Source: a virus
Lineage: Duplodnaviria; Caudoviricetes
Length of the DNA: 56,030 bases
Reading direction: 5' to 3' (one strand)
IMG/VR virus record: IMGVR_UViG_3300035703_000118
Span: 1 to 56,030 of that record
Positions 29,174 to 34,867 of the stretch are shown here, in pieces. The notes below the pieces were generated by a model. It had not been told where the DNA came from. It ran no database searches and saw only the letters and a program-made list of their open reading frames with translations. Within the stretch, counting starts at the first letter, position 1; every line of letters starts with the position of its first letter. The translations under genes were made by a program, and so were the position numbers.

Positions 29174-30046
29174 ATGACTCGCGGCCCAGCCCTGGCACAA
29201 TACTGGAGCGCCGAAGAAAACGACGGACGCGGCTATAAACGCCCCAGCACTGGTGAGCAAGTACCGGGTGTGACATCCATCACCGGCCTGGTTAACAAAG
29301 ACTTGGCGCAGTGGGGCGCAGACCTTGCAACCCGCTGGATGTCTGAGCACTGGTTTCAGTGGAATCCCGGCCAACGCTCCGAAGAGTCTGCGTTCAATTC
29401 GGCGCGCTACAAGTGGAAAGATTACCGCAACGAGCGAGGCCAGGTTGGTACGAACGTCCACAACTACATCGAAGACTTGCTCCTGGGCAGGAATCCGCTC
29501 TTTGAGTTTTTGGAGCCGGAAGAACAACGGCGCGTCTTGCAGTTTGAAGACTTCTGCTTCCTGACCGGCTTTGAGGCTACGGCCACCGAGCGGCAAGTGT
29601 GGGGCGGTTCATACGGCGGCACGCTGGATGCTCATGGCTGGATGTATTCGGAGCGCCTGGGGCGTAAAGCTCATGGGCTGTTCGATTGGAAGACTTCCAA
29701 GCGTGCGTATTTTGAGTACATGATGCAACTCGCTGCACTGAAGAATGCCGACTTCCAGTTCATTCAGCGCCCGCAAGCCGAGGCTGACACTAGCCCGCTG
29801 GTCAAAGACGGTAAGACGACTCACTGGGCTGAAGTGCCAATGCCGGAAGTGGAGACAGCTTGGATTGTGCATCTTACTGACGACAACTGGGCGGTTCACG
29901 AGTTGACGGATGAGGAGATGCACTTGTCTCGATTTGCCGCGTACACTGAAGTTTGGTGGGCGGAGAAGCGTCTGAAAGAAACGCTGGGCGCGCGGGGCCA
30001 GAAACTTGATCGCCCCGTAGACTGGTTTGATCCGAAAAAGGATTGA
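29174..30046 (+). CDS. PD-(D/E)xK exonuclease (RecE/Cas4-like)
   Basis: PGVTSI, GTNVH..IE, YGGTLD, DWKTS and QLAA motifs. Confidence 0.85.
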   Translation: MTRGPALAQYWSAEENDGRGYKRPSTGEQVPGVTSITGLVNKDLAQWGADLATRWMSEHWFQWNPGQRSEESAFNSARYKWKDYRNERGQVGTNVHNYIEDLLLGRNPLFEFLEPEEQRRVLQFEDFCFLTGFEATATERQVWGGSYGGTLDAHGWMYSERLGRKAHGLFDWKTSKRAYFEYMMQLAALKNADFQFIQRPQAEADTSPLVKDGKTTHWAEVPMPEVETAWIVHLTDDNWAVHELTDEEMHLSRFAAYTEVWWAEKRLKETLGARGQKLDRPVDWFDPKKD

Positions 30047-30071
30047 CGCATAGCAGTTCTGGCACTAGAGT
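30043..30071 (+). promoter_or_regulatory. SigA-type promoter for ssb
   Basis: TTGACG-N17-TAGAGT. Confidence 0.65.
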
Positions 30072-30110: not shown

Positions 30111-30500
30111 ATGACCATCAACCCGAACAACTACACTGGCGTGAGCGCCACCATCGTCGGCTGGGCCGCGACAGACCCTCGACCGCCTGCATACGACAAG
30201 GATGGCACCAAGGGCGTCATCGAGGTGCCCATCGCCCACAATGAGGGCTACACCAAGGACGGCGAGTTCGTGAAGACTGGCACCACTTGGTACTCGGTGG
30301 TTGCCGCTGGCGATGCCGCGAACGAACTGAAGCGCATCAAGAAGGGCGACAAGATTCGCGTGGATGATGCAAAGCAGGAGGTTCGTGAGTTTGAGACTGG
30401 CGGCGAAAAGAAGCTCGGCATTACGCTGCGTTTCGGCAAGGTCACCGTTCTGGACGCCAAGGGCGGCGCGTCAGCCGCAGATGCAGACCCGGTGTTCTGA
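30111..30500 (+). CDS. ssb: Single-stranded DNA-binding protein
   Basis: OB-fold pattern (TTWYSV...KKGDKIRV) and acidic-hydrophobic tail DADPVF. Confidence 0.85.
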   Translation: MTINPNNYTGVSATIVGWAATDPRPPAYDKDGTKGVIEVPIAHNEGYTKDGEFVKTGTTWYSVVAAGDAANELKRIKKGDKIRVDDAKQEVREFETGGEKKLGITLRFGKVTVLDAKGGASAADADPVF

Positions 30501-30715
30501 TGCCTGAGTTCCGCGTAACTCTTGCTCGCAAGATTGAGGGTAGTGAAAACCCCAATTCTGCCCAGTTTGACGAGTCGGATGCTTTCCTTATCTCCACTTT
30601 TCGGGCAAGCGACGAAAAGATTGCTGGGGTAAAGGCCCTCGACCATTTCCGAGACACCTTTGACTGGCATCCCGACTGGGTTGTCGCTGGCGTTGAGATG
30701 GTTGACGACGATTAG
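30500..30715 (+). CDS. Hypothetical protein
   Basis: 71 aa, TGATG coupling. Confidence 0.65.
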   Translation: MPEFRVTLARKIEGSENPNSAQFDESDAFLISTFRASDEKIAGVKALDHFRDTFDWHPDWVVAGVEMVDDD

Positions 30716-30769
30716 TTTGTGGAGTTGCCCGCCATTTTCAGGGGTGGAGGTGGCGGGACACAATTTCAT

Positions 30770-31193
30770 GGGGGTAGCGGTTTCTGGAATACGGAATGCG
30801 CGCCAATTCCGAGAAGTCCATCTTGGTCGAGCCATCGGTGAACGGGACTGACTGTAATCGTGTCAGGCGAAACCGGAGGAAAAGGACAAAAGCATCTGGC
30901 CCGGATGCAGTGACCGTTAATTCTAGATGAGTACGGCAACCCGTTGCGAAGACGGGAGGGCACCTAACTTCATAAGAGTCGCTGGATAACCGGGAACGCC
31001 AGCGGTCAGTGCAAGTGCAAGCCACCCGGCGCATTTATGCACGCACGAAAGGAAGCCCATCCTGCTTAGCGGCAAAACGGGCACAACCCCCACCACTGGT
31101 AGGCAGCGGTTCAAGCCCGCAACGCTTCGGTTGGTCTAGAAGGGCCGAAAGCCAATGGCGACTGTTGAGGTTCAAATCCTCAGTGGGGGACGA
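30770..31193 (+). ncRNA. Candidate large structured ncRNA ending in a tRNA-like domain
   Basis: Long gap in an otherwise gene-dense arm; multiple GNRA/UUCG-like hairpins; 3' T-arm and acceptor stem. Confidence 0.55.
31087..31190 (+). ncRNA. tRNA-like element (not a canonical tRNA)
   Basis: Perfect 7-bp acceptor CCCCCAC/GTGGGGG, T-arm TGAGG-TTCAAAT-CCTCA and mini D-arm CTG-GTAGG-CAG; the anticodon arm is replaced by ~60 nt of extra sequence. Confidence 0.6.
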
Positions 31194-31266
31194 TATGACA
31201 TACACAACCGACGTGAAGATGGGGCGCTAGACTGTAAACTCTCTCAACTGGAAGGCGGGCAGAAAC

Positions 31267-33477
31267 ATTAAGCACCTTGACCAGCGGGAGTTTCTGACAA
31301 AACTGTTCAGCGGCCTAGACTTCGGCTACGTTCAACTTGTCACCAGCCCCACCACTGGGCCGGATGTAAAGTTCAACATGCCGCGCACCTACGACCTGTT
31401 CACGGGTTTCGGTGACTTTTTAGAAGACGCTAAGCGGCTTTCCGTGGGTGACTTGTGTTTCGCGGTTGCAGCATACGGTCAAGAATACCGGCGCAAGAAT
31501 GACCCCGAAGCGAAGACCCGCGTCGTGTATGCCGATGTGGACGGCCTTGACCCTAAAGATTTCCGGGTAGCACCCACATTCCTTGTGTCGTCTTCCCCCG
31601 GACACTGGCACGCTTACTGGTTGCTGGAAGATTTCGTGCTCAACGATGAGGCCGCAGAAATCTCCACCGCCATTGCCAAGGCGCACGGCTTGGATGCTTC
31701 AAGCGGTATTGCCACCAAACTGCTGCGGGTGCCGGGGAGCGTGAACACTAAGTATGCCCCTGCGCATACAGTTCAGGCGTACCAGAATGTTGAAACGCTC
31801 TACACGCTGGAGCGACTGGCGTCCTTCTATCCGCTGGGCGCTGTCGAGGCTTACGATTCGGTCGAGTTGCAAGCGCCGGTTGAATGGCCCAACTATTTTG
31901 ATGCGCTCGCAGAAATCCCTGCCGACAATCGCATCCAAATGCTCATGGAGTGGGACAAGCGTACCGCCGATGACCCAGAGAAACGTAGCGAGCACCGCTT
32001 TGAGTTGATCCGGTTGCTCATGGAGAAGACGCACCTCACCCCTGAGCAGATCGCTGTCGTTGTTTGGCACGCGCCAGTCTCCGACCATTTCCGTGAGCAA
32101 GACCGGCCCATTGAGCATCTGTATAAGTTTGATGTGGCGAAAGCTCTCGGCAAGCAGGTGGAGCCGACCGAGTTGGAGCGGTACGAGCCTGAAGAGGCCG
32201 TCACTGATGTGCAGTTCATCACCGCCGAAGAGATGATTGCCGTCTACGAAACCCCCGGCTTTTTAGACAAGTGGCGTGAAATCAACTACGCCAACCTGCA
32301 TCCGAAAACGCCCGACCAGTACGTGCGGATCAACGGCTACGCGCTGCTGAGTGCGGCTCTGGGTAACAAGGTTACGGTGATGCCTCCAGGCACGTCGCGC
32401 GCTGTGTTCTGCAACTTGTACGTGCTCAACGTCGGGCAAACCACATCGGGTAAATCTGAGGCCCTGTTTATTCTGAAGCGGTTTATCAAGGCTTATAGCG
32501 AGAAGGTGGGCTATGAACTGTTTGTCGGCTCGTCAGCCACGTCGGAAGGTCTTATCAAGGCCCTGAAGGGCTACGACAAGCGCACGGCTCTGCTCATCAC
32601 CGAAGAAGTGTCGGGCAAGTTCCGCTCGTGGGCGAACAGTGCAAACATGGCGCACGCTCGTGAGACTGAGCTTGAATTGTACGACAACTATTTGCCGAAA
32701 AACTTGCGTGCCGGTGATGGTGCTGGCTCGGTGGAGAACGTTCACTTGTCGTTTTCGCAGTACATGATGGGTGTGGATTCAGAAGTGGAAGGCTTGCTTG
32801 ATCGCGGCTTTCTACGTTCCGGCTACCTGCCGCGTGTTCTCGTGGTGAAAGGTGAGCGCAGCATCTTTGACGCCTCCGAGCAGTTGGAGATTCCGCAGGG
32901 TGACCCCGACAAAACGCAAGACGTTGACCCGATTCCCGGCATTTGGGCTGAATCTTTTGCCGAGTCGATTCGCCGCAACAGTCGTCACGAGCAGGGCCGC
33001 TTTGGCTACATGGTGATGCAGTTTGAGGATGATGCCTGGTCGCGCTTTTTGCAGTTCCGTGCGAGCCTGCTGAAGTTTGCGGAATCCCACGAAGACCCGG
33101 ATGTGGTGCGTCCGATGGCGATTCGTTTTGCAATCAGTGCCCAGAAGATGATGGCGTTGCTTGCTTATGAGCGCGCTGCGGGTGTTGTGCAGATGATTGA
33201 CGTTTTGCGCGTGCTGGCCGACTGCGAAGATTTCTGGGGCTGGAGTATGGACTTAGTGCAGGGCGTGTCCGATTCGGCGTTTGCTCGGATGCAGGATGAG
33301 GTGCTAACGTGGCTGATTGCCCGCAACCGTAAGGCGCGTCTGGTGGACTTCCACACCCGCTACGCCTCGTGGACATTGAAAGAACGTAGTGATGTGCTCG
33401 AAAGTCTGATGGCTCGTGGCGTTGCTGCGGTTAGGACTAGCGATAAAGGATCGAAACACTTGGAGATGGCAGAATGA
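31267..33477 (+). CDS. RepB-like primase (AEP) fused to a P-loop helicase (DUF3987-like)
   Basis: YADVD, SSPGHWHAYW, LLRVPG..N.KY and Walker A GQTTSGKS. Start is either ATT 31267 (inferred) or ATG 31378. Confidence 0.85.
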   Translation: MKHLDQREFLTKLFSGLDFGYVQLVTSPTTGPDVKFNMPRTYDLFTGFGDFLEDAKRLSVGDLCFAVAAYGQEYRRKNDPEAKTRVVYADVDGLDPKDFRVAPTFLVSSSPGHWHAYWLLEDFVLNDEAAEISTAIAKAHGLDASSGIATKLLRVPGSVNTKYAPAHTVQAYQNVETLYTLERLASFYPLGAVEAYDSVELQAPVEWPNYFDALAEIPADNRIQMLMEWDKRTADDPEKRSEHRFELIRLLMEKTHLTPEQIAVVVWHAPVSDHFREQDRPIEHLYKFDVAKALGKQVEPTELERYEPEEAVTDVQFITAEEMIAVYETPGFLDKWREINYANLHPKTPDQYVRINGYALLSAALGNKVTVMPPGTSRAVFCNLYVLNVGQTTSGKSEALFILKRFIKAYSEKVGYELFVGSSATSEGLIKALKGYDKRTALLITEEVSGKFRSWANSANMAHARETELELYDNYLPKNLRAGDGAGSVENVHLSFSQYMMGVDSEVEGLLDRGFLRSGYLPRVLVVKGERSIFDASEQLEIPQGDPDKTQDVDPIPGIWAESFAESIRRNSRHEQGRFGYMVMQFEDDAWSRFLQFRASLLKFAESHEDPDVVRPMAIRFAISAQKMMALLAYERAAGVVQMIDVLRVLADCEDFWGWSMDLVQGVSDSAFARMQDEVLTWLIARNRKARLVDFHTRYASWTLKERSDVLESLMARGVAAVRTSDKGSKHLEMAE

Positions 33478-34109
33478 GTAGCCCCAAGGACATTTATCAC
33501 ATTGAACCAATAGAGTCAAAGTTCGCCCAGGCCCTTGTGGTAGAGAATCATTACCTGCACCGCCGCGCTCAGTGCATGTTTGCTTTTGGGCTATTCGAGG
33601 GTGAAGAACTTATCGGTTGCGTCATCTGGGGTAAGCCCGCATCTCCCTGGCCCTGTCGCGGCATCTGTGGCCCGGAAGAAGCCGATCACGTTTTGGAGTT
33701 GACCCGCCTCTGGATTGATGACAAGTCTGTAAAGAACGCCGAGTCTTTTTTGATCGCATCGAGCATCAAGATGCTACCGGAAAAGTATGACATTTTGCTT
33801 TCCTATGCCGAGATTCAGCAGGGCCACGTTGGCGTTGTTTACCAAGCAACCAACTGGCTTTTTACCGGCATGTCTGACAAAAACCTCGAATGGTGGGTTG
33901 ATGGCAAGCCACTGAAGCACTCTCGTCACGCTTTTGACGAACTGGGTGGCGTCGCTGAGGCCAAGAAGCATTATGGTTCGCGCATGGAAAAGATGGAGCG
34001 ACCCCGGAAGAATCGCTACATCATGTTTCGAGGGTCAAAGAAGAGGAAGAAGGAACTTATGTCAAAGTTGCGCTACAAGCCAATGCCGTACCCCAAGGCC
34101 GAGCAGTGA
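33474..34109 (+). CDS. Mom-like adenine-modification protein (GNAT fold)
   Basis: NHYLH, FGLF....LIG...WG.P, ELTRL, NAES..I...I, LSYA....GH.G.VYQA.NW..TG pattern. Confidence 0.8.
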   Translation: MSSPKDIYHIEPIESKFAQALVVENHYLHRRAQCMFAFGLFEGEELIGCVIWGKPASPWPCRGICGPEEADHVLELTRLWIDDKSVKNAESFLIASSIKMLPEKYDILLSYAEIQQGHVGVVYQATNWLFTGMSDKNLEWWVDGKPLKHSRHAFDELGGVAEAKKHYGSRMEKMERPRKNRYIMFRGSKKRKKELMSKLRYKPMPYPKAEQ

Positions 34110-34867
34110 AACCACCGTTTCCCTACTATGGGGGCAAGCAGAGAATCGCAGAGAAGATCATCGAGACCTTTCCGGCGCACGGGCACTACATTGAGCCTTT
34201 CGCTGGCGGGCTGAGCGTGCTCTTGGCTAAAGAGCCGAGCAAGCACGAGACCGTCAACGACCTCGACAAGTCCCTGGTGACTTTCTGGCGCGTGTTACGA
34301 GAGCGGCCCGAAGAACTTTACAATGCGTGCCTGCTGACGCCGTGGTCGCGTTCAGAGCAAAAGACTTCTACCGACCTTGATGTGCCCGATGAACTGGAAG
34401 TTGCTCGCAGGGTTTTTGTGGCGCTGACCCAAGGGCGCGGTGCTCGGCTGAGCAATACGGGTTGGCGCTTTGTGTCCGATCCGAAGTCACCCACACCCAT
34501 GTCCCGCTACCGGGACGGCTATGTTTCGCGCCTTATGCCCGTTGCCGAGCGGTTGCATTCTGTCACCCTGGAGTGCCGTGATGCGCTTGATGTTATCAAG
34601 ACTTACGGGCGAAAGGGCGCGCTGCTGTACGTTGACCCGCCCTACCTTGCCGAGACTCGCTCTGGGACTGGCTACGGGGTCGAGATGGAAGATGTAGATT
34701 CCCACCGCGGGCTTGCCGAAGTTTTGCGTGCCACTGAAGCCAGCGTCTGCTTGAGTGGGTATGACTCGCCACTGTACGCGGAACTGTACCCCGGCTGGAA
34801 TCGGCTGGAAATCAAAGCTCGCGCCAACTCGGGTAGTCGAACCGAAGTGTTGTGGATGAACTACTGA
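34106..34867 (+). CDS. Dam-family (D12) N6-adenine DNA methyltransferase
   Basis: FPYYGGK, EPFAGG, NDL, DPPY and E.LW.NY motifs. Confidence 0.93.
   Translation: MKPPFPYYGGKQRIAEKIIETFPAHGHYIEPFAGGLSVLLAKEPSKHETVNDLDKSLVTFWRVLRERPEELYNACLLTPWSRSEQKTSTDLDVPDELEVARRVFVALTQGRGARLSNTGWRFVSDPKSPTPMSRYRDGYVSRLMPVAERLHSVTLECRDALDVIKTYGRKGALLYVDPPYLAETRSGTGYGVEMEDVDSHRGLAEVLRATEASVCLSGYDSPLYAELYPGWNRLEIKARANSGSRTEVLWMNY

Follow-up and report, generated by a model that had tools for sequence, protein, structure and literature searches.

The virus record IMGVR_UViG_3300035703_000118 (Duplodnaviria; Caudoviricetes) is a complete, cyanophage-like phage sequence of 56,030 bp with direct terminal repeats, and this whole stretch is referred to below as the window. 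Between a gene with a weak SSB match (ssb) and a primase gene it contains a gap that an earlier note, made from the letters alone, had marked at 30770–31193 as a single large structured non-coding RNA (ncRNA). Our analysis favours a different organisation, to which we assign a probability of roughly 0.55: positions 30758–31197 are a hypervariable cassette slot for small RNA genes, occupied in this phage by a mimic of transfer RNA (tRNA) that has no anticodon and stands behind a pseudoknot. The evidence lies in the architecture of the region, its conservation, its covariation and its mosaic exchange. From the earlier reading we retain the non-coding character, the RNA structure on the + strand and an uncatalogued tRNA-like element, but not a single RNA of the GOLLD or ROOL type. 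The interval first proposed nearly coincides with the exchangeable slot; the non-coding stretch ends, however, at about 31230–31266 and not at 31377, since the primase frame has coding character from 31231 onwards.

The nearest named relative of the window primase is the primase of Pseudanabaena phage Pan2 (71% identity). According to its published description, Pan2 is a siphovirus from Lake Chaohu that has been cultured and has a known Pseudanabaena host (PMC9837993). The closest primases of all (P0001–P0004) are 82–96% identical. Scans with an alignment of 26 primases found one IMG/VR locus, eight metagenome loci and no genome locus, and the region upstream of the primase is covered in nine related loci, Pan2 counted in (labels L002–L011). 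A single-protein scan of viral contigs and a blastn search against phage records found no relatives. Natural variants were taken from Logan contigs of four runs from four studies, aligned to 30400–31700 with at least 80% likeness. One of these runs, X2, bears the label RNA-Seq together with a flag that marks it as probably DNA, and its contig ends and depth were not taken as evidence.

The tRNA-shaped element and its pseudoknot leader

The element begins just downstream of the pseudoknot (Table 1). A descriptor made up of a 7-pair acceptor stem and, adjoining its 3' strand, a 5-pair T stem with a consensus-type T loop finds one match in the 56 kb, both strands included, at 31087–31189, and in the nine related loci it picks out only tRNAs and mini-tmRNAs, the latter being tag-less forms of transfer-messenger RNA (tmRNA). 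Shuffled windows give 0.355 matches per window, with at least one match in 62 of 200 shuffles, and on the + strand of the 440-nucleotide (nt) slot about 0.001 matches would be expected by our own arithmetic.

With the tRNA-Leu(CAA) and tRNA-Asn(GUU) genes of the Pan2-like phages the element shares its slot, its strand and a pseudoknot leader at a distance of 3–4 nt. It also shares the acceptor stem, a T arm with a TTCRANY-type loop and the discriminator A, A31190, with which it ends, CCA not being encoded, and its 5' part can be aligned with the letters of their D arm. Unlike these tRNAs, it has no regular anticodon stem with a 7-nt loop, and 56 nt, compared with about 23, separate its D region from its T arm. 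When the acceptor, the T arm and the helix 31124–30/31145–52 are enforced, the predicted fold is a cloverleaf with a long irregular third arm at 31107–31164 (~58 nt) and an energy of −37.4 kcal/mol, compared with −40.5 kcal/mol for the minimum free energy (MFE) structure. A tRNA-like element of no catalogued family is supported.

The earlier note could assign no family to the region, and the searches agree with it. Scanning the whole window against Rfam with cmscan at gathering thresholds gave no match, GOLLD and ROOL included. At E≤10, positions 30500–31500 gave only chance-level matches to microRNA, long ncRNA and plastid families, and no tRNA, tmRNA or tRNA-like family appeared in 30716–31090 or in 31075–31200. 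The latter 126 nt, scanned with all 4227 Rfam families, matched neither the tRNA family nor any tmRNA family at E≤10, and the 5' signature of tmRNA, GGGG...UUCGACGG, is absent from the element. ARAGORN in its default setting reports 0 tRNAs and 0 tmRNAs in the window; its relaxed calls (a tRNA-Pyl with an intron and a tRNA-?) arise only at thresholds of 80% or less, contradict one another and were discarded.

A variant contig from run X2, ~88% identical, carries 11 changes within the 104 nt of the element, counted among the 15 of its 27 differences that are listed. In the long arm the C–G pair 31128:31147 becomes U–A, and 31127 changes from U to C together with 31148 from A to G. In the same arm 31111:31160 passes from U·G to U–A, in the acceptor 31093:31183 goes from C–G to U·G, and there is no T-arm change among those 15 of 27 differences. 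Such compensatory changes are suggestive of a fold that has been kept. The same substitutions (31127 T>C, 31128 C>T, 31147 G>A and 31148 A>G) remove the UUCG and GAAA loops of hairpins quoted in the earlier note. All four quoted strings are present (30866–74, 30940–56, 31121–32 and 31143–53), and two of them, AACGCTTCGGTT and GGCCGAAAGCC, are better read as the two strands of one helix.

The pseudoknot, with stems AGGA/UCCU and GCCC/GGGC, ends 4 nt before the element. It occurs once in the window, with a chance expectation of 0.01, and by blastn it is 97% identical over 39 nt to L004:2556–2594, although the primases of the two phages are only 71% identical. Eleven copies, of two sequence types, are present across the window and the nine loci, and nine of them end 3–4 nt before a tRNA, a mini-tmRNA or the window's element. 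In an alignment of nine sequences 95.2% of the cells are paired, against 27–48% when the alignment is slid, and three pairs are changed on both sides; the L008 sequence is misaligned here and by eye carries CAGGT/ACCTG. In a variant contig the pseudoknot is changed in a loop only, four letters being left out at 31065.

No Rfam family matches the pseudoknot at E≤10. A fold like that of hepatitis delta virus (HDV) needs an extra hairpin, which by eye is lacking here, and a known ribozyme or riboswitch was rejected as its identity on these two grounds. A pattern scan of viral contigs returned the L003 contig itself and two unrelated stretches, apparently within coding sequence and with no tRNA; the second pseudoknot type had 0 matches in viral contigs. 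Among cellular genome contigs 35 stretches fit the pattern, none of the 35 beside a tRNA, and since our own arithmetic predicts about 20 by chance we treat them as such. Seven of the related loci carry, close to the pseudoknot, a further hairpin that is absent from the window; its loop, TTGRCCCGAACTT, is conserved and its stems covary (CACCAAC/GTTGGTG against ACCGGC/GCCGGT).

Table 1. Positions of the features in and around the slot; positions are those of the window unless a locus label is given.
Feature	Position	Strand	Description
Hairpin A	30727..30757	+	13 pairs, GGGG loop, three U·G pairs; left border of the variable slot
Module 1	30758..30891		134 nt; no counterpart in the loci fetched; fold z −0.77
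Module 2	30892..30961	+	70 nt, three hairpins; fold z −1.91, 11/200 shuffles
Module 3	30962..31048	+	Two hairpins: C, 30979–84/30998–31003; D, about 31008–31041
H-type pseudoknot	31050..31082	+	Stem 1 31050–53/31060–63, stem 2 31055–58/31079–82; third loop A-rich
Putative tRNA-shaped RNA gene without anticodon arm	31087..31190	+	104 nt
Acceptor	31087–93/31183–89	+	Perfect, 7 pairs
Small D hairpin	31096–98 with 31104–06 (or with 31107–09)	+
Long arm	31107–11/31160–64, 31115–17/31157–59, 31124–32/31143–52	+	10-nt apical loop 31133–42
T arm	31166–70/31178–82	+	5 pairs, loop TTCAAAT
Right border	31198..31266	+	Promoter-like motif, ribosome-binding-like site, primase leader
Promoter-like GTGAA-N-TAGACT	31213–31233	+	Unique in the window
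Ribosome-binding-like site	31250–55	+	GGAAGG
RepB-primase/DUF3987 gene	31267..33477	+	Pfam; start probably ATT 31267, not ATG 31378
Predicted mini-tmRNA genes	L003:2613–2693, L004:2670–2748, L005:2627–2705, L009:1246–1324, L011:2627–2705		tRNA-like domain only
TTGRCCCGAACTT-loop hairpin	L003:~2579–2611, L005:~2556–2582, L006, L008:~1652–1680, L009–L011

Exchange of the slot and its contents in related phages

The gap is non-coding. As the earlier note had held, there is no credible open reading frame (ORF): those starting with ATG, GTG or TTG are all of at most 98 aa between the stop of a 71-aa ORF (30715) and about 31230. Log-odds of codon usage, with 16 long ORFs of this phage as the training set, do not exceed 0.06 bits/codon in any of the six frames across 30680–31160, compared with 0.25–0.57 in the flanking genes. 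Six ORFs lying inside the gap score −0.12 to −0.29 and have no Pfam or PHROG match. Both results rule these small ORFs out as protein-coding.

The variant contigs show how the slot is exchanged. A contig of run X3 matches the window up to 30757, then has 363 unrelated letters in place of 30758–31197 and resumes at 31198. A contig of run X9 leaves 30722–30757 unchanged, has 72 other letters for 30758–30891, retains 30892–30961 with 0 differences, and carries 221 letters in place of 30962–31197 before it also resumes at 31198. Further contigs, of X2 and X3, stop at 30961. The contigs of the two independent runs X3 and X9 thus place break points at 30757, 30891, 30961 and 31197. The stretch of 30758–31197 may be swapped as a block or 30892–30961 kept alone, so that the 420 nt must be regarded as several independent modules; we conclude that 30758–31197 is an exchangeable slot between two conserved borders, made up of sub-modules. 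Two other changes found in the X3 and X9 contigs lie outside it. In one relative 777 additional letters stand between 31261 and 31279, where the primase begins, and another lacks the 71-aa ORF (30500–30715), 5 letters replacing the 223 of 30499–30721.

None of the nine related loci lacks a tRNA or mini-tmRNA in its ssb–primase gap. By ARAGORN, tRNA-Asn(GUU) or tRNA-Leu(CAA) lies in the slot of seven of the nine, and for six of these seven the Rfam tRNA score is 56–68 bits. Bacterial tRNA-Leu normally carries a long variable arm. The tRNA-Leu(CAA) genes of the relatives are 74–76 nt long and have none (L003:2769–2844, L006:509–584, L009:1325–1398 and L010:2642–2717); the L008 copy has 82 nt and lies below the Rfam tRNA threshold.

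The slots of five of the nine loci hold a further element of ~80 nt, with an acceptor GGGGCGC/GCGCUCC (G3:U70), the tmRNA 5' signature, a T arm and a discriminator A (A73). The copy in L004 aligns end to end with the Rfam tmRNA model (RF00023), at 40.2 bits and E 2e-15 in a 106-nt search where the gathering score is 47, and 13 nt stand in for the 306-nt message and pseudoknot part of that model. Judged by these sequences, the elements of the five sister loci are tag-less mini-tmRNAs. They go undetected by ARAGORN and at Rfam gathering thresholds, and a mini-tmRNA pattern scan of viral contigs found only the contig of L003. A tmRNA of this kind, reduced to its tRNA-like domain (TLD), has been published for mycobacteriophage DS6A (Hudson, Lau and Williams 2014, PMC4131195).

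The window's element was tested as a mini-tmRNA and rejected. C31089 pairs with G31187, giving C3–G70 and not G3:U70. A covariance model built from the five sister mini-tmRNAs (R1) scores its own training sequences at 83–104 bits and reaches at best 4.4 bits on the element with filters off (E about 1), matching the T arm only. Like the published DS6A RNA (PMC4131195), the element is a tRNA-shaped phage RNA that combines an acceptor with a T arm and lacks a message part. In the DS6A RNA a helix stands where the anticodon arm would be, and the constrained fold of the element predicts such a helix too. It differs from the DS6A type in its C3–G70 pair, in lacking the tmRNA 5' signature, in its length (104 nt against about 80) and in its small D hairpin.

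The modules upstream of the pseudoknot are less well defined. The first letters of module 1 loosely recall the 5' end of tmRNA, where the mini-tmRNA model gives only 0.2–3.6 bits at best; positions 30770 and 30772 vary from G to A in contigs of X2 and X8, and the module has no Rfam match at E≤10. A full-length or two-piece tmRNA was considered here, with the letters at 30770 as its start and CCCCCACCA at 31087–95 as a 3' end. It was ruled out by the lack of a T arm before CCCCCACCA and, by eye, of a tag frame, by the negative ARAGORN and Rfam results and by the G>A variation at its start. The last hairpin of module 2 (30940–30956, followed by GGGCAC) resembles by eye the second stem and tail of the pseudoknot motif. 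The layout of module 3 parallels L004:2469–2556 in alignment and folds, a comparison made by eye between two sequences only: hairpin C corresponds to a 6-pair stem that is the same with its strands exchanged and has a similar 13-nt loop, and hairpin D shares the apical CACCCG.

Proposed role and alternative explanations

From the architecture and the mini-tmRNAs that share the slot we infer that the element is transcribed, cut by ribonuclease P (RNase P) and a 3' enzyme, provided with CCA, and active as a decoy or competitor. Hairpin A would close the ssb–orf71 unit, and the slot would then lie between hairpin A and the promoter and leader of the primase. Transcription on the + strand would come from read-through from a promoter-like site at 30043–30071, which is probable since hairpin A has no U-tract. 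RNase P would cut at 31087, the 3' enzyme after A31190, and CCA would be added. Being unable to decode a codon, the product may mimic tRNA so as to occupy a host factor that binds tRNA, or to compete for it, a role modelled on that proposed for the mini-tmRNAs filling the same slot in sister phages. After the RNase P cut the pseudoknot would form the 3' end of the upstream RNA, which it may shield from 3' exonucleases.

The usual explanations for phage tRNA genes are codon usage and evasion of defences that cut tRNAs, and ribosome rescue is the process with which tag-less mini-tmRNAs are supposed to interfere. Here, in one slot and behind the same pseudoknot, decoding tRNAs, mini-tmRNAs and a tRNA-shaped RNA with no anticodon appear to replace one another among related phages. 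These phages offer a natural comparison set for what tRNA mimics do in infection and for the purpose of a structured leader 4 nt before an RNase P site, and with Pan2 in culture on Pseudanabaena sp. Chao 1811 its pseudoknot-plus-tRNA-Asn unit can be tested. A bolder proposal, which we hold as doubtful, is that Pan2-like cyanophages possess an exchangeable 'tRNA-mimic toolkit', in which the pseudoknot serves as a universal leader licensing the processing or stabilisation of whatever tRNA-shaped gene follows, with cargo ranging from decoding tRNAs through mini-tmRNAs to a new class of anticodon-less mimics. Each cargo would then target a different function of host translation or tRNA-directed defence, and the pseudoknot, as a new motif of RNA, would have a defined part to play in the expression of tRNA-type genes. 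Among the papers listed for cyanophage tmRNA and for phage tRNA-like, pseudoknot and RNase P leader RNAs, no title or abstract opening describes such a leader or mimic.

Several observations weigh against a slot occupied by a functional tRNA mimic. The unconstrained MFE structure of the element is a different fold from the cloverleaf (−40.5 against −37.4 kcal/mol), and the fold z is only −1.43. No aminoacylation identity can be read from the element because it lacks U8, G3:U70 and a 7-nt anticodon loop on a regular stem. Its covariation comes from one variant contig with 15 of 27 differences listed, in which 31097 T>C also breaks the D stem of the constrained fold and fits only the alternative register, by pairing with 31108. 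For the 290 nt upstream there are one architectural comparison, made by eye with L004, and near-identical variants only. No RNA runs are listed among the Logan holders of the window sequence. No tRNA- or tmRNA-handling family has a Pfam match among the 51 of 82 candidate ORFs scanned and eight neighbouring genes. Finally, the exact 22-mer of the T arm and acceptor has 0 matches in IMG/VR viral contigs and GTDB genomes.

That 22-mer result in viral and genome contigs also led us to discard an attP-type copy of a host tRNA 3' end. No integrase family was found by Pfam in the same set of ORFs and neighbouring genes.

An unlikely reading makes the element a tRNA pseudogene in decay, such as a tRNA-Leu(CAA) disrupted by an insertion in its anticodon region, and the rest of the slot non-functional debris of exchange. 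A tRNA-Leu(CAA) does stand at the same place in relatives, the element holds a hairpin GCGG-TTCAAGC-CCGC whose loop can be read as the anticodon CAA, tRNA finders and models reject the element or, with ARAGORN relaxed, treat it inconsistently, and the contents of the slot change rapidly. At a divergence of about 11%, a variant nevertheless keeps the acceptor and T arm and alters both strands of the long arm in step, and the upstream pseudoknot remains 97% identical to that of L004, a retention not expected of a pseudogene.

Somewhat less credible is a role in cis only, in which RNase P would use the tRNA-like fold as 'punctuation' to separate the primase message from that of ssb, messenger RNA ends and stability would be set by the pseudoknot and the hairpins, and no trans-acting RNA would be made. 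The position of the slot exactly between two transcription units and beside a conserved promoter-like motif would suit such a role, as would a hairpin A without a U-tract and the 3–4 nt that separate 9 of 11 pseudoknot copies from the RNase P cut expected downstream. Sister phages, however, carry bona fide tRNAs and mini-tmRNAs here, which are trans-acting molecules, and punctuation alone would give no reason for a conserved long arm of 58 nt in which changes are compensated.

We consider it very improbable that the slot is a replication origin or acts in some other way at the DNA level, although its position beside replication genes would fit. There are no iterons and no AT-rich block, the repeats are short and in two copies, the skew has no inflection and GC content is 0.54–0.585 in 200-nt segments overlapping 30770–31193 (segment starts 30600–31100). 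The content is moreover replaced between close relatives sharing the same primase, and the G·U pairs work only as + strand RNA.

The single structured ncRNA of about 420 nt, of the GOLLD or ROOL class, is barely tenable: the long non-coding stretch, the many hairpins and the adjoining tRNA-like element recall one, but there is no Rfam match, the folding energy over the whole region is ordinary (z −0.50 on the + strand and +0.37 on the − strand), tetraloops are not enriched, the parts are swapped independently in relatives and the quoted tetraloop hairpins are not kept. The richness in GNRA- and UUCG-like loops described in the earlier note does not exceed chance in shuffle controls. Closed by at least three pairs there are 0 such tetraloops, compared with a shuffle mean of 1.35; closed by at least two there are 5, compared with 3.37±1.86, and 119 of 500 shuffles reach 5.

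GOLLD, ROOL and other large phage ncRNAs resemble the gap in being non-coding phage loci that adjoin tRNA-type genes. The gap differs from them in matching no model, in being modular and not one conserved unit, and in being explained by much smaller functional pieces. The supposed large ncRNA is corrected to a mosaic, in which the tRNA mimic, like the mini-tmRNAs of sister phages, is overlooked by current tRNA and tmRNA finders.

The tRNA-like structures of plant RNA viruses have an upstream pseudoknot domain; their place is the 3' terminus of an RNA genome, where they become aminoacylated. A pseudoknot directly 5' of a tRNA mimic is common to these structures and the window's element, by analogy only. 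In contrast to the plant viruses, the genes here are those of a DNA phage, and a cut at the expected RNase P site would leave the pseudoknot with the leader.

Borders of the slot and neighbouring genes

The hairpin that the earlier note had placed at about 30727–30757 proves to be real, with a folding energy of −22.1 kcal/mol, a z of −4.26 and none of 200 shuffles as stable. Because three of the pairs in hairpin A are U·G, its stability is confined to the RNA of the + strand. The apical CCA-GGGG-UGG is retained in Pan2/L004, L008 and L009, and the stem varies compensatorily among these copies. In the alignment of the four sequences 91.7% of the cells are paired, against 31–64% when it is slid, and three of the nine counted pairs are changed on both sides. 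Its G+C-rich stem is followed not by a U-tract but by ACACAATTTCAT, and a terminator scan gave no + strand site here, which rules out a classical intrinsic terminator.

The right border is equally well marked. Contigs of relatives resume at 31198, and blastn matches cover 31198–31266. The GTGAA-N-TAGACT motif is found upstream of the primase in L002, L004, L005, L009 and L011. The primase frame is coding for 147 nt 5' of its first ATG (31378), with no ATG, GTG or TTG there, and 31231–31377 scores 0.234 bits/codon in this frame compared with 0.254 over the body of the gene. In all relatives the aligned position is ATT or ATC, 7–9 nt after a GGGAGGG-like site, and the residues that follow are shared, so that the window primase probably starts at ATT 31267; the sequences suggest that a conserved AUU/AUC is the primase start codon of the group. 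The GTG annotated as the start in Pan2 lies across the ribosome-binding site, and its counterpart in the window is GCG.

By Pfam, the gene 3' of the gap has RepB-primase and DUF3987 domains. Other ORFs of the window belong to capsid, terminase, tail tube, tape-measure-like and helicase families. Directly 3' of the primase, at 33474–34867, a gene of the Mom family (E 6e-42) is accompanied by one for an adenine methyltransferase of the D12 class, a pair that points to DNA modification functions within the replication module.

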